Below are positions 55,146 through 62,560 of a stretch of 64,000 bases of DNA, in pieces (the first letter of the stretch is position 1; each line of letters opens with the position of its first letter). The position numbers and the translations under genes were made by a program. Source of the DNA: an uncultured delta proteobacterium (GTDB taxonomy: Bacteria > Desulfobacterota > Desulfomonilia > Desulfomonilales > Desulfomonilaceae); NCBI GenBank assembly GCA_963789265.1, contig CAWBKB010000001.1:288001-352000 (forward strand), given 5' to 3'. The notes under the pieces are model-generated. The model was not told the origin of the DNA and searched no databases. It saw only the letters and a list, made by a program, of their open reading frames with translations.

Positions 55146-55339
55146 TTTGTGTCCAGGTGAAAGCGGACGGCTCAAATAAGGCATCAGAGATTCGCGTGCA
55201 TGTCAAATTTCAAGACCTGACCCCTTGCTTGCTTATTTATTTGGCGAAGATCTATCGCCGCCGACAGGCTACTCGCTCTCCGTCCAAGAGACAGACCACC
55301 TTGCTACCTTTGGCCAACCACTGTTTCTTCAAAACTTCT

Positions 55340-56273
55340 TCACGCAGCCCGATGTTCTTCCACGAACCTCCTAATGTTCCTGTGGAGGAAGTTCCGCATC
55401 AGGTCCGCGATCTTGTCGCCGTCCTCTTCAAGCGCGAAGTGTCCTGTGTCGAGAAGGTGAAACTCCAGGTTCTTCAGGTCTCTCTTGTAGGGTTCAGCGC
55501 CGGTTGCAGGGAAGATGGGATCGTTCTTTCCCCAGACAATGAGCGTCGGCGGCTGGTGCTCACGGAAATAGGCCTGCCACTTCGGGTACAGCGGTGGGTT
55601 GCTGCCGTAGCTATGAAAAAGAGCGAGCTGGATCTCAGCATTTCCCTGCCGGTCGAGCAGTGGCTGGTCAATGTTCCAGGTATCAGGACTGATTGTCTCC
55701 TTGTCCCGAACCCCCTCGGTGTATTGCCATACGGTGGCTTCCCGGGTGAGGAAGCGGCGCAGGGGCTTATCGCGCTCTGCCGTCTTTTCCTTCCAGTAAG
55801 CCTTGAGCGGTGTCCAGAAATCGTTGTCAATGCCCTCGTCGTAGGCGTTGCCGTTCTGCACCACCAAGGCCTGGACGAGGTCGGGGTGCTTGGTAGCCAG
55901 ACGGTAGCCGACAGGCGCGCCATAATCCTGAACGTACAGTGTGGTACTTCTTCAGTCCAACCGCATCGGTGAACTTGTCGATCACATCGGCCAGATTATC
56001 GAAGGTGTACTCGAACTCGTCCACGGTCGGCATCGAGCTATTGCCAAAGCCGGGGTAGTCCGGTGCAACCAAGTGGAACTCATCGGCCAGCGCCGGGATC
56101 AGGTTGCGGAACATCTGCGAACTGGTCGGGAAGCCGTGTAGCAGGAGCACGGCGGGGGCGTCCTTCGGTCCTGCCTCGCGGTAGAAAATATCCAGACCGT
56201 CTATCTTCGCAGTCCGGTAGGCCACCCTTGCTGAAGTTAACGCTCCTGCGGAAGTTTCATTCTCTGTTTTCAT
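55340..56273 (-). CDS. Alpha/beta hydrolase (epoxide hydrolase-like), frameshifted near 55942
   Basis: [42 protein letters not shown]. Confidence 0.88.
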
Positions 56274-57153
56274 GATTGTTCTCCTTAGTGCTGTTTCTTA
56301 TTTGCTCCGATGCTTGATCGCCCTTGCCTCGCGGAACGTGAGCCGAGCAGTGGTCCGCTGTGTAGAAATCGTGGGGCGAGATCGAGACCTTGAAGATGCG
56401 CTCCGTGTTCCGCACTCTTCTCCGACGCTGCTGTTGGCCACTTCCTACGCGAAGGCCGGTCAATTCAAACATCATGCTGCGGGTCTATGAATATCAGAGC
56501 TTTCCCAATGCCTTTTGACGGAGACGGCTTCTTGCCAGGCTTTTGTTCAGAAAATTTTGATGGTTAAACCAGTACAAATTCCAGCATTCCGCGCACAAAT
56601 TCCGATTTTGCCAAGAACCCGGCCGGACTCCGTTAAACAAAAATTGTACATTGGCCCGGCGTCAGTCAACACGACAACTAAAGCAAAGAATTGGGGTCAG
56701 GTCTTGTTTCTTGCCTTTTGCCGTTGCCGTTGGTAGAGCCTGCTCCCTGTAGAGCAGTGGAGTCAAACGTGCGCAGTGATCTCATGGTGTGAAAAGCCGT
56801 ACTGCAGATGGGCTTTGTCGACTGCCCTGTCTCGTTTCGATGCGGACCGAACTCACGGCAAGAGTCCATCGAGAGACGGGAAATTCCGGGGACACCATGC
56901 TTTTTTCCCGTACCGCATATGGCGATAGAATTTTCTACTTGGCCGCTGATGACGTTTGATGTTGGTGTCAGGCATTGAAATGCCATTATAGGTCGCACAG
57001 AAATTTCAATATACTTCGTCATATTCAGGTAATAACAGTCTGTTCAAATAAGCCATCAGAGATTCGTCTGGATGTCAAATTTCAAGACCTGCCCCGTTTT
57101 TTCATCTAGCGGTGTGTTCTTTTATTGCCCTTTGTGCAGGGCCAGTATTCTAT

Positions 57154-57765
57154 TCACCCTGTGGTAAGGTAAAATATGACAAGTGTCACCGGTGGTGCAG
57201 TGAGCAGCAGGGCATAAAGTCCATATGTATTACAAATATTTCTAAGACCTATCCGTCGGGCCGAGCACCAATCAATCTGAAAATCCGCTCGATTCTTAGC
57301 CTTGAAAAGTTCAAAGTCGATGACATCGTGATTTTCCTGATATCGCCGCAAAATGCTAGCATATCGTTTTGATATCTTTTGGATTTGCTCAGGAGTATGG
57401 CCATTTTCCTCATTGTAGGGCGCTAGCTGGAGAAGATCGTTGTAAACATTGGTGATCTCGTTGGCGCAGTTATAGAGCCTTTCAGCCCTAAGTTGATAAT
57501 TCTTGGAAGCCTCAAGCAATGACAGCACCAATATGAACAATGACGCCAACAGCGTGGTAAATGCCAGAATATTTAGATATTTTACATTGAACACGAGAAA
57601 ATATGGTGCTAACCGCAAGCCAATTACATATATGCTCAGAATCGCGATCGATAAGATAGACCAGAGACTTTTTGTCTTGCAGCGCCTGTAGGTATTATAT
57701 CTAGCTCCTTTAGTGACCCACATTTTTTTGGCAAGCTCTTGTCCAAACGGAGTTTTTTCTGCCAC
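57154..57765 (-). CDS. SLATT domain two-TM membrane effector (SLATT_5-like)
   Basis: KMWVTKGARYN..RR, two TM helices, LSLLE...NYQLRAERLYNCANEI, Y..IL....ENH...DF, C-terminal TM. Confidence 0.8.
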   Translation of the reverse strand: MAEKTPFGQELAKKMWVTKGARYNTYRRCKTKSLWSILSIAILSIYVIGLRLAPYFLVFNVKYLNILAFTTLLASLFILVLSLLEASKNYQLRAERLYNCANEITNVYNDLLQLAPYNEENGHTPEQIQKISKRYASILRRYQENHDVIDFELFKAKNRADFQIDWCSARRIGLRNICNTYGLYALLLTAPPVTLVIFYLTTG

Positions 57766-57925
57766 GAGGCGCCTCCGGGTGTTCGCTTTGTCGAGCGTAG
57801 GGGCCGCCTCTGAAATAAAAAAACTCTCCGAAGTGCTATGCCTCGGAGATCCTGGGCCTCACAGGGCTCGGATTACAAATACCCCCGCCGTGCTGACAGG
57901 AGCCTCCCTTGCGGGGAGGCAACCC
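57766..57925 (-). ncRNA. Candidate structured ncRNA between the RT and SLATT genes
   Basis: GC-rich 160 nt within an AT-rich locus, with at least four stems and a U-rich single-stranded tract. Confidence 0.45.
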
Positions 57926-58447
57926 CTACGAAATCAATCCTACATCAAGATCAAGATCTGACAAGTGTTTTTTCTTCACGCCGATAAATAAGATTTCGAT
58001 TTGCTCGCGTGAATAGCGTTTTTCAGGATTCAACAATCCCCTATCAGCTAAGTATTTGATTTTGGCAGGGACTGTCTCATATAATTCATAATTTTGTATG
58101 TAGCCACCAAAGGTGTCATACTTTATCTTGTAAAATGCAGTTGACAATTTCTTTAGCTGCCCAGGCGTGCGGTAGTCGAAATCAGATAGCCTGCGAAAAA
58201 AACCTCTAATGATTCCGTCCAATTTATGGAGTAACTGCATGTCATTGATCTCTGCGAAGTAAAATAACCAACCATATCGTTTCTGCTCACTAATCGCTCC
58301 AGTTATTTTTTCGTTGAGATCTTCTATGAAGACCCGTTCTTGGGTTTCCTTGGTCATCCATCCGCATTTCTTCAATTGGTCCCCCGAATTATGAAGGTAC
58401 CAGGTGAACCTGGCAGCTATCGAAGTGAGGAATCTCTCTATATTTTG

Positions 58448-60057
58448 GGGTGCCGCGATTTCTTGTCATGAGTGGCTCAAGTAAAAACGAGTAGATAGCA
58501 CGGAGAAAGGAGTGGTTTCCGGTCCTCTTATGGGGTACATGACGTTTGGCGAACGATGTATCCGCTGGGGAGGACCGGATATGGAACAAGGAATACCGAA
58601 CATAATCTCGCTGGTCAATGAGATTCTCGCCTTTGTGCGAGAGTCAGCGCAAGGAATGGAAATCGGGGAAGTAGAAAGGCAGCTTCTTCCCATGGTGATG
58701 GCGGTCGGGAAAGCGGCTCTTGAAGAATTTGTGTCTGAAAAGGGGACCGGATATGCCGGCAAGGAGATCATCGAACCCCAGGGCCATCGATTGCCATATG
58801 TTCGTGACAGGGGATGTGCATATCGGTCCATCTTTGGAACGATATCCATCCGGAGAGCCTACTATCACGCAACCGGCTCACCGGGAGTCTTTCCTTTGGA
58901 TGGAGAGATCAACTTGCCTGAGAGAGGCTATTCATACCTGGTTCAGGAGTTCTCTTCCCGGCTTGCGGTTTCGATGAGCTACGAGGATGCGGAGGAGATT
59001 TTTCGTTCCTTCTTTCCCGTAAGGATGCCAATTCGTTCACTGGAGAGCATTGTGGGAGACGTCTGCGACGAGGTGGATCGATACTACGCAGAGAAGGCCC
59101 CGCCGGATCTTTGTCCGGATGCTGTGGTAACGGTCGCTACCGTAGACAAGAAGGGGGTGGTTATTCGTAAGCCCCAGGAAGGCGGGGCCGGTCCCGAGAG
59201 GGTCTCCGTTGATCCCGACAAGCCCGGAAAGAAGAAGATGGCAACCGTGATCTCCACCTACGTCACTCCACGTTACGTCCGCACGGAGGACGACATTGTC
59301 CGTGAGGTATCGGACGAGGGTAGTTTCGATTCCAGGCCCAAACCCCAGGACAAGCTTACGTGGGGCAGCCTCACCGATGGTTCGGAAAAGACGGTGGCCC
59401 GCCTGAAGAAGGCTGTCGAACAGCGATTGCCGAAAGGTAACGAGCTGGTCTGTATCCTGGACGGAGAGCGTTCTCTCTGGGCACTGGTATGCGCATATTT
59501 TCCTGCAGCCTTTTTCGTGCTGGACATCTTTCACGTCCTGGAACACTTGGGGAAAGCCGCTCTTTGCTTTTATGACGAGGGCAGCCCGCAAGCCAGAGAA
59601 TTCGTGACGGAGAGATTGAGAATGCTCCTGGGCGGCAGGGCCGGCAGGCTTATCGGCGGGCTCAAGCAGATGCTAACCAAGCAGGAACTCTCCGGCGCCA
59701 AGAAACATTGCATCGAACAAGTCATCGGGTATCTCCAACGAAACCGCAAGCACATGCGGTACGAAATCTGCTTGGCAAAAGGCTATCCCATCGGCAGCGG
59801 GGTCATTGAAGGAGCATGTCGCAACCTCATCAACGACAGATTGGAACTCACGGGGATGAGTTGGACGATCCATGGAGCGGAAAGCATGATCCACCTGAGG
59901 GCCGTTCACATCAACAACGACTGGGATCTCTTTTGGAATTATAGACGAAGATCGGAGAGGCGACGCCTCTACGGCATCGAAGATACAAACTCTCCCGAGA
60001 TCCGGGATCAAGAACTACCGCGTGCCGCATAACTCCTGACAGAAAGTAGCGGCACCC
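58448..60057 (+). mobile_element. ISKra4-family insertion sequence, 1610 bp, with 9-bp target duplication TATATTTTG
   Basis: IRs gggtgccgcgatttcttgtcatgagt / actcctgacagaaagtagcggcaccc; TSD at 58439-58447 and 60058-60066. Confidence 0.92.
58581..60032 (+). CDS. ISKra4-family transposase
   Basis: FPLD..INLP...YSY, LDGE..LW, LDIFHVLEHL, GYPIGSGVIEGAC. Confidence 0.9.
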   Translation: MEQGIPNIISLVNEILAFVRESAQGMEIGEVERQLLPMVMAVGKAALEEFVSEKGTGYAGKEIIEPQGHRLPYVRDRGCAYRSIFGTISIRRAYYHATGSPGVFPLDGEINLPERGYSYLVQEFSSRLAVSMSYEDAEEIFRSFFPVRMPIRSLESIVGDVCDEVDRYYAEKAPPDLCPDAVVTVATVDKKGVVIRKPQEGGAGPERVSVDPDKPGKKKMATVISTYVTPRYVRTEDDIVREVSDEGSFDSRPKPQDKLTWGSLTDGSEKTVARLKKAVEQRLPKGNELVCILDGERSLWALVCAYFPAAFFVLDIFHVLEHLGKAALCFYDEGSPQAREFVTERLRMLLGGRAGRLIGGLKQMLTKQELSGAKKHCIEQVIGYLQRNRKHMRYEICLAKGYPIGSGVIEGACRNLINDRLELTGMSWTIHGAESMIHLRAVHINNDWDLFWNYRRRSERRRLYGIEDTNSPEIRDQELPRAA

Positions 60058-61154
60058 TATATTTTGTTCTCTTATGGTTACTTTGGGTAACTCTAAGTGA
60101 TAGCCCAAATAATCGTACGGGCAGTTGGAAATATTGCACTCCGTTTTTCTTTTACTGAGGTTCAAGTCCAATTCGGTCAGGTCACGGGTTATTTCTGTTT
60201 CAAGTTCGTCTGCATTTTCTTCCTGGACAAAGAACAAAATATCGTCCACGTACCTAAAATATTTGAGCCCGTACCGCTGAAATTTCTGGTCCAATTGATG
60301 GAGATAGATATTTGCTAGAATGTTTGATATCGCAAGACCCTGAGGTATTCCTTTGTCGGTCTTATACTGTCCGCGGTCAGATCTGCTGTTGAGTGGAACT
60401 GTTGGTGTGCTGACGGCTAGTTTCAGCAACGTAAGTATTTTCGGCGATTTAACCTTGGCACGAATAATCGACATAAGGACCAAGCGATTTATGCTATCAT
60501 AAAATGACTTGATGTCACCTTTGAAGTAACATAGAGTTTGCTGTCCATTCGATTTATCGAACTCTTTTATTTCTCTTATGTAATCATTTGGCAACCTTCT
60601 GTTCACAGAGAGCGGAAACACTTGATGCATGAATTCCTTCAATAAATACAAGACTATGCGATCGCGCATGGTAGCGACTGAAATCACTCTAGGAAGTTTG
60701 CCCCTGCCTTTGCTCAGTAACTTCTCAACGTATGGCGTAAATCTATATGTTCCTTTATTACATTTCCGATAAATAACTTGGAAGTGTTCTTTTTTATCTC
60801 GATTGAAGGTTTTAATACCAATTCGATCCAAACCTCTGGTCGGTTTTTTCGAGACAAAATTATCGTAAGCTGATTCAATGCTCTTTATAGAAAATAATCT
60901 CTTGAAACGTTCTGCAGGATAGGGCATCGCTGGCATATCACCGTTTCACAAAACTACCGCATCTTTTCTCTATCACAGCAACTGTTTCATTACAATTGAA
61001 ATCTGATACGTGGCACTACGGGAGGAAGTTTGGGGACGCTCTTAAAAAATTAACAAACTTTCTGCCGTAATCTGTAGTGATTCCCATGGGCAATCTTCTT
61101 TATTCTACGCGCGGCGTAGCCAACACTTGGAACTGTCATTCCAGGTGGGGGGCA

Positions 61155-61344
61155 GGGGTCAAGTCTACTCTTGGCTCATCTGCGCGCTGGCATCCAGTGC
61201 CGTAGGGGCGCCGAAGGGGTCAAGTGTGCTCTTGACTCACGTTGCGCGTGTTACTCGATGTCATGGTGCGCCTAAATGAGCCAAGAGCAGACCCGACCCT
61301 CTTTGGTTACAGCCGAACCATGAGTCAAGAGCAGACCTGACCCC
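61155..61344. repeat. Cluster of four 24-bp repeats, two forward then two inverted
   Basis: ggggtcaagt.t.ctcttg.ctca at 61155 and 61216; inverted tgag.caagagcagacc.gaccc at 61277 and 61321. Confidence 0.75.
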
Positions 61345-61545
61345 TTTGCCTCTTTCAGGCGCTGACGGAGGCTGTGCGCGACTCGGCCGTACCCTCAGGA
61401 AACACCCTCGTTCCTTGCTACGGAGAAGTTTTTCCTTGACGGAGGGCCTTTCAATGGGTGACCTCTTTCGAAGGTTCCAATTTCTTGAGGTATTTCTAAA
61501 GAAAGCGATTCGTTTCGGACAGCGAACCACTATAGGAGGCCTGTA

Positions 61546-62493
61546 ATGTCCTACAGTCAAACAGTATACGATCTTCTCGAAAATTTTGTTCCAATAGGAA
61601 CATTCTCGTATGCAGCGTTGGTGAGCCGAGAACCCCATTATGAGCATTTTGCTGAAAACGTCCGGGCAGCCGCCATTGCCTCAACATTGGGGCTTAAGAG
61701 CTTAGATTACGCAAAGCGCCGGTACGATTGTAAGGACCAGGGGGTAGAGACGGAAGTACTCCCAATTAACGCATATATCGACGCGTATCACTTTACGAAT
61801 TCATATGTGAGGAATTGCATTGCCTCTCTAAAGACTGATGAAAAGCCGGAGCCTTCTGCTGGAGAGTTTTGTGCGGCAGTTGTTCTCACAAGACTACCCT
61901 CCAGTTTTTTTTGCGCTCATTTAATGTACGAATTGGGGCACCGGTATGAGGGGCATGCAATATCGAGGCTTATTCTCGAACAACTTGCTTGGGCCTATGC
62001 GGCCTTCAAAGCTCAAGATGTAGAGATTGTAAAAAAAATCCGTACAACGAAAACATTGTCAACACTCACGTCATTTGCCCCCCAAGCGGGTGAGTTATAT
62101 GGTTTCTTAAGTAAGAAGACCCATATTGATTATTCGATTCATCCGGAGTTCTTAAGAATCTATGATGGTACAAATGCTATTATTCGAAGCCACGGCGACT
62201 ACATTTTGCCTGAATACGGTTCGGTAATCCTTCTGCTGGGCGATCTATTTGGTTTAGTATGGGAGGCATCTCAGTTTCAATATATAGTTTCACCGCAGGC
62301 GGTTGAATCGAGGCGAGGCACTTGTTTTCCCAAACCAGATCGAGCGTACCTTTTAAGCATGCAGGAATACCTGAGTAATATCGACCAAGCCGTACAGGAG
62401 GCTTATCATGCTCTAAATGAAGAATCGGGCGAAATTTCTGCGGCTCTGAGAATCTTTAGAGAATGGTCTACTCAGAGAGTAACTAACGGCTGA
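61546..62493 (+). CDS. Low-GC hypothetical protein, possible HEPN-like (DUF5677-type) fold
   Basis: AGGAGG RBS; SRLILEQ and LYGFLSKKTH motifs. Confidence 0.5.
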   Translation: MSYSQTVYDLLENFVPIGTFSYAALVSREPHYEHFAENVRAAAIASTLGLKSLDYAKRRYDCKDQGVETEVLPINAYIDAYHFTNSYVRNCIASLKTDEKPEPSAGEFCAAVVLTRLPSSFFCAHLMYELGHRYEGHAISRLILEQLAWAYAAFKAQDVEIVKKIRTTKTLSTLTSFAPQAGELYGFLSKKTHIDYSIHPEFLRIYDGTNAIIRSHGDYILPEYGSVILLLGDLFGLVWEASQFQYIVSPQAVESRRGTCFPKPDRAYLLSMQEYLSNIDQAVQEAYHALNEESGEISAALRIFREWSTQRVTNG

Positions 62494-62560
62494 ACAACTC
62501 CTTGCGCGGAAGGGGGGACGCTCTCAAACCACACTGCACGTCCCTCAATTTTATGTTTCT

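Follow-up and report, generated by a model that had tools for sequence, protein, structure and literature searches.

What is the broken reverse transcriptase (RT) gene that lies beside a gene for a SLATT membrane protein in the genome of an uncultured delta proteobacterium (GTDB lineage Desulfobacterota; Desulfomonilia; Desulfomonilales; Desulfomonilaceae; GenBank assembly GCA_963789265.1), and is the system to which it belonged still working? The locus was analysed in a stretch of 64,000 nucleotides (contig CAWBKB010000001.1, positions 288,001 to 352,000 of the forward strand), henceforth called the window, whose own numbering is used throughout. It is very likely a DRT10 (UG17) module of RT, non-coding RNA (ncRNA), and SLATT gene, of the UG17-B type, that reached this genome by horizontal transfer and was later inactivated by an ISKra4-family insertion sequence (IS), which entered the RT gene recently. 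An initial annotation of the window had placed an RT, a 160-nt spacer, and a SLATT gene on the minus strand, and each element was recovered where it had been placed (Table 1), the spacer spanning 57766–57925. The module was also more AT-rich than the host genes, as had been noted: GC content was about 0.39–0.46 in both protein genes, i.e., outside the IS and the GC-rich ncRNA stretch, and 0.52–0.60 in the flanking host genes at 53–56 kb.

The minus-strand open reading frames (ORFs) between 54 and 64 kb measured 341 aa (59911..60936), 149 aa (57926..58375), and 203 aa (57154..57765), the first being the N-terminal part of the RT reading on into the IS; hence the same two RT fragments, of 341 and 149 aa, appeared in the ORF list as the initial annotation had reported. 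When the IS plus one copy of its target-site duplication was removed, the two RT pieces (293 codons, and 170 codons plus stop) were found in the same frame and yielded the predicted protein of 463 aa. In an alignment with 12 homologues (mostly full-length, 461–472 aa) the pieces ended and began at adjacent columns, and they likewise abutted, at 282/283, on the PADLOC profile RT_UG17 (429 positions), which was matched by the N-terminal part over positions 4–282 (1.2e-93, 312.4 bits) and by the C-terminal part over positions 283–428 (5.6e-34, 115.7 bits). The next-best PADLOC model for the N-terminal part reached 145.6 bits (4.5e-43), Drt9 lay outside the 25 best of 96 PADLOC models listed for this part, and the C-terminal part had RT_UG17 as its sole PADLOC match; the proposed DRT-type RT was thereby placed in UG17/DRT10. 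Pfam RVT_1 matched the N-terminal part at 1.7e-22. GIPQG (residue 196), YVDD (residue 229), and DYLGY (residue 275) were all located in the rejoined protein, and a motif scan of it found no VTG, in agreement with the annotation. Its C-terminal extension of about 170 aa, also foreseen there, corresponded to the alpha-helical C-domain with the conserved NEKITG, RYGWLFYF, and a terminal ...DLDVGLIS, and aligned through to the end of the full-length homologues; the last residue was Ser in 10 of 11 full-length aligned homologues and Tyr in the remaining one.

A search of a large protein collection gave 733 matches; among the best 120 of these, most were 455–500 aa long and the closest full-length homologue was 57% identical. 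Close relatives with an organism name came from metagenome-assembled genomes (MAGs) of Thermodesulfobacteriota, Methanosarcinales, Verrucomicrobiae, and Saccharibacteria. The rejoined RT was the only UG17 RT of its genome. Phage records contained no relative at E 1e-20, and plasmid records contained 13 matches of at most 36% identity, the best lying on a Pseudomonas veronii plasmid, where it is annotated as a SLATT-RT pair. Homologous loci were collected by means of the RT alignment, as the initial annotation had suggested, which resulted in 109 related loci (27 from genomes, 80 from metagenomes, and 2 from viral contigs).

The partner gene was identified with equal consistency, its product matching SLATT_5 in Pfam (1.7e-46, profile positions 6–190 of 192) and in NCBIfam (140 bits, cut-off 60) as well as RTasSLATT in PADLOC (2.1e-37), and the annotated SLATT membrane protein beside the RT was thus upheld. 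Its hydropathy profile showed a hydrophobic stretch at residues 32–88 (two helices) and a hydrophobic C-terminal segment at residues 182–203. The architecture of the related loci was tallied with a SLATT profile built from the loci and with hits of the ncRNA models described below. The RT preceded SLATT in 59 of the 109 loci (median gap 156 nt), and an ncRNA was detected between the genes in 48 of these 59. SLATT preceded the RT in 32, with an ncRNA downstream of the RT in 7, a weak hit upstream of SLATT in 3, and none detected by the model in 22. The remaining 18 loci had no SLATT; an ncRNA followed the RT in 10 of them, and six of the other 8 were cut or short loci. Linkage of homologues to SLATT, on which the initial annotation had let its proposal stand or fall, was accordingly present in 91 of 109 loci.

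The spacer between the two genes had been described as structured. Folded alone it was not significantly stable (z −1.19), and a search of 56900–61400 against Rfam, which holds no family for the DRT10 ncRNA, returned only a chance-level psbNH match (18.8 bits, gathering score 45); because the lone fold was not significant, the word "structured" rests on covariation in homologues, and in that sense the description stood. Covariance models were built in this analysis: model R1 from the four closest sequences and model R2 from the 47 hits of R1. The consensus fold of the four closest sequences had 39 pairs, 13 of them with a compensatory change, and the spacers of loci with the RT-then-SLATT order aligned to a common pattern. 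This pattern consisted of the 5′ strand of a basal stem (P1, 13–14 bp, 57916–57929 paired with 57797–57810), three small hairpins, a conserved single strand, the strong hairpin SL5, a loop of 12–21 nt, and the 3′ strand of P1, with the RT stop codon taken into the 5′ strand of P1. The 47 R1 hits were found in 100 sources, all on the strand of the RT, and R1 scored 123 bits in the window. R2 gave 67 hits in 99 sources; in the window it matched 57930–57793 (92.7 bits, E 1.3e-19) as the sole hit in 64 kb, and apart from the window, 62 of the 98 related loci searched had an R2 hit immediately behind the RT stop, on the strand of the RT. With three duplicate loci that were matched only by R1, the ncRNA tally came to 65 of 109 loci.

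Covariation was pronounced in both resulting alignments. In the R1 alignment (A5) 91.1% of cells were paired compared with 63.4% after shuffling, 38 of 39 pairs had changed on both sides, and the covariation score was 0.746 against at most 0.137 with slid partners. The R2 alignment (A6) comprised 63 distinct sequences, in which 89.6% of cells were paired (60.5% shuffled), all 39 pairs showed compensatory change, and the covariation score was 0.781 against at most 0.166 for the slid controls. A sigma-70-like promoter-like site with 9 of 12 consensus matches ended 7 nt before the 5′ end of the ncRNA, which is a positional hint only; the same stretch in seven relatives was only loosely promoter-like.

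The loop that follows SL5, GUUUUUUUAUUUCA, is predicted to be the template, and its simplest A-B-A′ reading would be UUU-A-UUU. It also holds a run of seven U, and U-rich loops give such repeats easily. Copying of it would give a dA-rich repeat, either 5′-TAAA-3′ or a T followed by 3 to 7 A. The corresponding loops of the closest relatives read UUUA-UUUA or UUUA-AC-UUUA and were less U-rich than that of the window.

These parts were compared with the published accounts of the system, which are cited here from passages of the respective papers. UG17 systems were named DRT10 by Tang et al. 2025 (PMC12632851), according to whom defence needs all three of ncRNA, SLATT, and RT. The RT makes kilobase-long tandem-repeat single-stranded DNA (ssDNA) by protein priming near its C-terminus (Ser456 or Tyr444), defence is lost when the C-terminal priming Ser is mutated, and the template is an A-B-A′ segment in the loop just 3′ of a stable stem-loop (PMC12632851). 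A complex of two RTs with one ncRNA was reported in a further preprint (10.64898/2026.10.08.757509). E. coli that lacked the exonuclease SbcB was killed by DRT10 unless RT, ncRNA, or SLATT had been inactivated (bioRxiv 10.64898/2026.04.29.721553). This toxicity, like defence, depends on all three parts, among them an active RT, and the effector is proposed to be SLATT (PMC12632851; bioRxiv 10.64898/2026.04.29.721553). The link between UG17 and SLATT was already described by Mestre et al. 2022, as was an E. coli UG17 locus in which sbcB ceased to be essential once the RT carried an insertion (PMC9226505). Sanchez-Nieto et al. 2026, who credited two UG17 gene architectures to Mestre et al. 2022, split UG17 into three subtypes, among which UG17-B has an "alternative RT-SLATT arrangement" with the genes about 200 bp apart and the ncRNA upstream of SLATT; Methylotenera mobilis JLW8 and a prophage locus of E. 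coli H120 are examples (bioRxiv 10.64898/2026.04.29.721553).

The window module fits this published kind, gene order included. With UG17-B it shares an RT of about 460 aa that matches the UG17 profile and carries YVDD and a C-terminal Ser, a SLATT_5 partner, the RT-then-SLATT order, and a spacer of about 160–200 nt with a structured ncRNA upstream of SLATT. It is unlike UG17-B in that its RT gene is split by an IS, and whereas the named UG17-B hosts are Pseudomonadota or Bacteroidota, the close relatives of the window RT that carry an organism name come from other groups. The order RT-RNA-SLATT, which the initial annotation had put forward as a possible variant architecture, has therefore already been published as UG17-B (bioRxiv 10.64898/2026.04.29.721553). 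Its proposal of an ncRNA-templated complementary DNA (cDNA) that acts through a SLATT effector fared better: for DRT10 relatives the cDNA has been shown and the role of SLATT as effector has been proposed (PMC12632851; bioRxiv 10.64898/2026.04.29.721553).

The characterised systems Eco3DRT10, Eco1DRT10, and Escherichia sp. E3659 DRT10 are of the UG17-A type (ncRNA-SLATT-RT) and have the same three parts, presumably with the same mechanism, but their gene order is rotated relative to the window. Their ncRNAs measure 137–143 nt compared with about 133 nt in the window, and both have a basal stem, several stem-loops, and a loop after a stable stem-loop. The predicted template of the window is U-rich, whereas the characterised DRT10 repeats are of 9 nt (GAATCATTG) or 7 nt (AGTAATA). 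On the distant SLATT-RT type, R2 gave only weak hits (24–25 bits) upstream of SLATT, in 3 of 25 loci. DRT9 (UG28) also resembles the window system: it has a class 2 UG RT that is protein-primed, its ncRNA is similar in shape, and its template is rich in U, as is the window loop with its run of seven U; DRT9, however, makes poly-dA from a conserved poly-U template, primes from internal tyrosines, and has SLATT only as an accessory.

In the intact system, if it worked as its published relatives do, the RT would bind the ncRNA of 133 nt whose gene follows directly on the stop codon of the RT. DNA synthesis would be primed from a hydroxyl side chain at the C-terminus of the RT, for which the conserved terminal Ser is the candidate here, and the RT would copy the short single-stranded loop 3′ of the stable stem-loop over and over, realigning on the A-B-A′ repeat, so that a long tandem-repeat ssDNA would be produced. 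The level or form of this DNA would be set by a host 3′–5′ exonuclease and disturbed by phage SSB-like proteins, and according to the published proposal it would switch on the SLATT membrane protein, by which the infected cell would be stopped. In the present state the IS would part residues 1–293 (catalytic) from residues 294–463 (C-terminal domain with the priming end), and no cDNA would be expected.

The element responsible has terminal inverted repeats of 26 nt (81% complementary; 58448–58473 and 60032–60057) and a transposase that exceeds the cut-off of NCBIfam NF033572 (transpos_ISKra4; 249.3 bits, cut-off 205). Seven full-length copies were reported at 100% identity in the genome (6.06 Mb, 9 contigs), and a 9-bp duplication was found at all four IS copies whose flanks were readable. 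In its transposase score (over the equivalog cut-off), its inverted repeats, the 9-bp duplication beside it, and the number of identical copies, it agrees with the ISKra4 family and differs from it in nothing notable; it is an ordinary active IS. It interrupts the RT between codons 293 and 294, downstream of the palm motifs and ahead of the C-terminal domain; the N-terminal fragment continues into 48 IS-encoded residues. No lesion besides the IS was found in the RT pieces, the ncRNA, or the SLATT gene, and neither RT piece contains a stop or a frameshift. The insertion is read as recent because of the seven identical copies, the 9-bp duplications, and the lack of any other lesion. In the tested systems both an active RT and the priming residue are required; here the catalytic part and the priming end are on separate fragments, and the module in its present state is therefore most likely inactive.

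Table 1 Coordinates of the features in the window and of the SLATT-replacing membrane protein in related loci
Feature	Positions	Strand	Evidence or remark
N-terminal part of the RT gene, 293 codons for fingers and palm (GIPQG, YVDD, DYLGY)	60058..60936	minus	translation, Pfam, PADLOC
Target-site duplication, copy 1	60058..60066		TATATTTTG on the plus strand; sequence and flank comparison
ISKra4-family insertion sequence, 1,610 bp	58448..60057	plus	inverted repeats, NCBIfam
Transposase ORF, 506 aa	58512..60032	plus	
Target-site duplication, copy 2	58439..58447		TATATTTTG on the plus strand; sequence and flank comparison
RT gene, C-terminal part (170 codons and TAG stop)	57926..58438	minus	translation, PADLOC
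Promoter-like site (TTGTCA, 16 nt, TAGGAT), in the last RT codons	57937..57964	minus	consensus scan
DRT10-type ncRNA, about 133 nt	57797..57929	minus	consensus fold, covariance models, covariation
SL2	57904–57915	minus	GCAA loop
SL3	57881–57903	minus	
Conserved single strand AUUUGUAAUC	57871–57880	minus	
SL4	57856–57867	minus	
SL5, strong hairpin	57825–57849	minus	
Loop GUUUUUUUAUUUCA, predicted template, flanked by SL5 and the 3′ strand of P1	57811..57824	minus	model alignment
Ribosome-binding site GGAGG, 6 nt ahead of the GTG start of the SLATT gene	57772..57776	minus	sequence
SLATT_5 gene, 203 aa	57154..57765	minus	Pfam, NCBIfam, PADLOC
Membrane protein of about 210 aa, related loci	L044 2792–3433; L045 3100–3720; L075 3042–3674; L077 1345–1986		
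Membrane protein of about 210 aa, related loci	L020 3215–3937 (= L083); L021 4077–4742; L082 2559–3185		

The surroundings of the module point to its origin. Among 40 related genomes no close homologue of the RT was found, the best other hit being 27% identical. A response-regulator gene at the right is shared with three same-genus genomes at 96–97% nucleotide identity, and synteny with them ends at 62553–62560, which marks the right border of a variable region. Window positions 55150–57100 (to the query end) had no nucleotide match in the three same-genus genomes, and for positions 57100–62550 only short repeats matched within the 18-kb stretches that adjoin the shared flank gene in two of these genomes. 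The left border of the variable region was not found, the left flank genes lying on other contigs in the same-genus genomes. The low GC content fits horizontal acquisition; on these results the module is strain-specific and was probably acquired horizontally.

Several points weigh against the reading of the locus as an acquired, IS-inactivated UG17-B module, and they are considered here together. The UG17-B label was drawn from gene order and spacer length. Covariation was counted on model-fitted alignments, which favour structure; the compensatory change was large nevertheless. Repeats of at least 4 nt occurred in 19 of 40 distinct template loops compared with 12.3 expected, a count reached by 2 of 500 shuffles, and this enrichment is modest; the template register of GUUUUUUUAUUUCA is itself ambiguous because the run of seven U allows longer registers. 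SL5 together with the U run (57817–57823) scores as intrinsic-terminator-like, and termination there could leave an RNA without the 3′ strand of P1. In contigs of four DNA sequencing runs, pieces of the locus were recovered at 100% identity in run X1, with the IS at higher depth; the contigs stop at the ends of the IS, and none of them bridges the IS junctions or an empty site. The search of sequencing runs listed no RNA run that contains the locus.

Against this background three alternatives were weighed. An RT of some other class (retron, group II intron, Abi, diversity-generating retroelement, or CRISPR-associated) that adjoins the SLATT gene by coincidence is scarcely credible. This explanation could draw on generic NCBIfam models that match the N-terminal part (group_II_RT_mat 135 bits, Drt3a 90 bits) and on group II intron RTs being the nearest solved structures by sequence, in a PDB search that returned no DRT10 chain and no match at all for the C-terminal part. 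These NCBIfam scores are, however, far under the curated cut-offs of 300 and 200 bits, and no NCBIfam group II, retron, or Drt2-5 RT model came near its cut-off. RT_UG17 leads the PADLOC models with 312 bits, the next one reaching 146, and it is the only PADLOC match of the C-terminal part. No Rfam intron or retron RNA was found in 56900–61400 at E values up to 1, and the SLATT linkage in 91 of 109 related loci is hard to reconcile with a chance neighbourhood. A retron RT in particular was rejected on the score of retron_St85_RT (45 bits, cut-off 235), the lack of VTG, and the lack of a retron RNA in the same Rfam search, and a group II intron RT or maturase on that of TIGR04416 (135 bits, cut-off 300) and the lack of a group II intron RNA match in Rfam. 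The initial annotation had named clustering with retron, group II, or CRISPR RTs as evidence that would speak against it, and no model of these kinds exceeded its curated cut-off. The other-class explanation was thus tested by NCBIfam cut-offs, PADLOC, Rfam, and SLATT linkage, and rejected.

If the RT is a UG17 RT, the IS may still have left part of the module working, either because the intact ncRNA and SLATT act without the RT or because both RT fragments reassemble. The ncRNA is intact by covariance model and the SLATT gene by Pfam, the promoter-like site stands just before the ncRNA, a second minus-strand promoter-like site (58469–58442) crosses the end of the IS and points into the downstream part, and the ncRNA of UG17-A is transcribed independently of the protein genes (bioRxiv 10.64898/2026.04.29.721553). 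Residual activity is very unlikely all the same: the dependence of tested DRT10 defence and toxicity on all three parts, an active RT included, and the loss of defence on mutation of the priming Ser (PMC12632851) speak against it, the C-terminal fragment lacks an evident start codon where the gene is broken (its first in-frame start is a TTG, 21 codons in), and the N-terminal fragment carries its 48 additional IS-encoded residues. Inactivation by the IS being retained as the most likely state, the insertion might have been selected rather than neutral, the ssDNA being toxic when not trimmed by exonuclease I and the RT knock-out being fitter in a host without this enzyme. DRT10 could not be established in E. 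coli without SbcB, with relief by mutation of RT, ncRNA, or SLATT (bioRxiv 10.64898/2026.04.29.721553), the E. coli UG17 insertion with its effect on sbcB (PMC9226505) offers a parallel, the SbcB C-terminal domain PF08411 was not found in the genome (95.6% complete) while the E. coli control was positive, and in two close relatives the RT is likewise interrupted by a mobile element (L004 with an IS, L007 with a group II intron). Selection nonetheless appears rather unlikely. A mobile element interrupts the RT in only 2 of 109 loci (4 more are frameshifted, maybe through assembly errors), a group II intron can splice out, so that the gene need not be inactivated, and PF08411 was present in only 1 of 14 well-known control genomes, so that SbcB may be missing from many natural UG17 hosts whose systems have stayed intact. 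An IS with seven copies may also simply land in AT-rich DNA, 3 of the 4 target sites read being A/T-rich.

The relatives of the window module were placed on a quick maximum-likelihood tree with SH-aLRT support only. The window fell into a seven-row clade (99% support) together with the RT-ncRNA-SLATT loci L028 and L001 and with a nested group of SLATT-RT-ncRNA loci (L002, L005, and L006/L030; 100% support), in which only L002 carried this label at the tree stage and L005, L006, and L030 were assigned to it in a later recount. The order SLATT-RT-ncRNA was seen in L002 (1880–4020), L005, L029, L006, L030, L007, and L012, of which L012 stands elsewhere on the tree and L007 and L029 are not tree rows. 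In these loci SLATT ends a few bases before the start of the RT (about 90 nt in L012). The ncRNA of L002 follows right after the RT stop (103–116 bits), and because only 83 nt separate the upstream gene from SLATT there is no room for a second RNA upstream. Together with the two published orders, SLATT-RT-ncRNA makes up all three rotations of one circular order. In the passages on DRT10 of PMC12632851 and bioRxiv 10.64898/2026.04.29.721553 that were available, the ncRNA is upstream of SLATT in all subtypes, and neither SLATT-RT-ncRNA nor a membrane protein replacing SLATT is mentioned; a word search of the available text of bioRxiv 10.64898/2026.04.29.721553 for "downstream of" returned nothing. 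The order is offered as a lead, and no priority is claimed. That the ncRNA gene in the window's branch of UG17 is tied to the 3′ end of the RT rather than to SLATT is a tentative idea to which we give somewhat less than an even chance. The basal stem of the ncRNA is built partly from the RT stop codon. Bearing on this idea, SLATT has shifted to the front of the RT in the SLATT-RT-ncRNA loci without the ncRNA leaving its place behind the RT, and another group of loci retains RT-ncRNA with a different membrane protein where SLATT would be.

Further departures were seen among the related loci. In some of them SLATT is replaced after the UG17 RT by a conserved membrane protein of about 210 aa (N-terminus MIEKTKLSLWDFFV...; Table 1), and the ncRNA is present in all of the listed loci but L082. 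This protein had no Pfam, PADLOC, or PHROG match, and a profile comparison of its family with SLATT reached an hhalign probability of only 7%, by which no relationship was shown; either it has taken over the effector role or SLATT has diverged very far in these loci, both of which are conceivable. Three of these loci, L044 (510–1211), L020 (1003–1707), and L083 (723–1427), encode immediately ahead of the RT a protein of 233–234 aa with weak RNase_H_2 (PF13482, 2.5e-5) and PolB-exonuclease-like matches, which might be a system-encoded exonuclease; DRT10 of E. coli is held in check by the exonuclease SbcB. The UG17 RT of L007 (2210–5461; Desulfobacteraceae MAG) is broken right after the YVDD codons by about 1.9 kb encoding a group II intron-type RT/maturase of 478 aa, and that of L004 (905–3589; Verrucomicrobiae MAG) near residue 105 by about 1.3 kb with a DDE-type transposase of 341 aa on the opposite strand. 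In L013 (2304–4169; Mariniflexile MAG) RT and ncRNA are followed, in the place of SLATT, by a leucine-rich-repeat protein of 621 aa.

Within the window, three neighbouring features were recorded beside the module. A low-GC ORF of 315 aa (61546–62493, plus strand) adjoins it, had no Pfam, PADLOC, NCBIfam, or PHROG match, and was found in none of the 109 related loci; the variable region may carry it as further cargo. On the minus strand at 55340–56273, an alpha/beta hydrolase is encoded in two overlapping ORFs (148 and 175 aa) that cover Abhydrolase_1 positions 1–74 and 106–244, and this gene is probably a frameshifted pseudogene. Positions 61216–61304 hold a repeat of 70–90 nt that recurs with 86–94% identity at other sites in two same-genus genomes and looks like a small dispersed repeat, REP or MITE-like.

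The window copy is an IS-inactivated member of a system characterised in 2025–2026, in an arrangement that has already been described, and the layouts of its relatives are the more novel part. As one more DRT10 locus, and most likely a dead one, it matters little in itself. It is an example of a defence gene that is hidden from ORF-based annotation by the split that an IS has caused, and it offers a natural knock-out of the RT that has left ncRNA and SLATT in place. Its predicted U-rich template would stand between the styles of DRT9 (poly-U) and DRT10 (short repeat). From the 109 loci, the RT-first branch of DRT10 gains a covariance model and a tally of its architectures; the available passages of the DRT10 papers contain no bench characterisation of this branch. 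If they hold true, the layouts of the relatives would show with which partner the ncRNA co-evolves, and the effector, perhaps also the exonuclease brake, would be an exchangeable part of the system.

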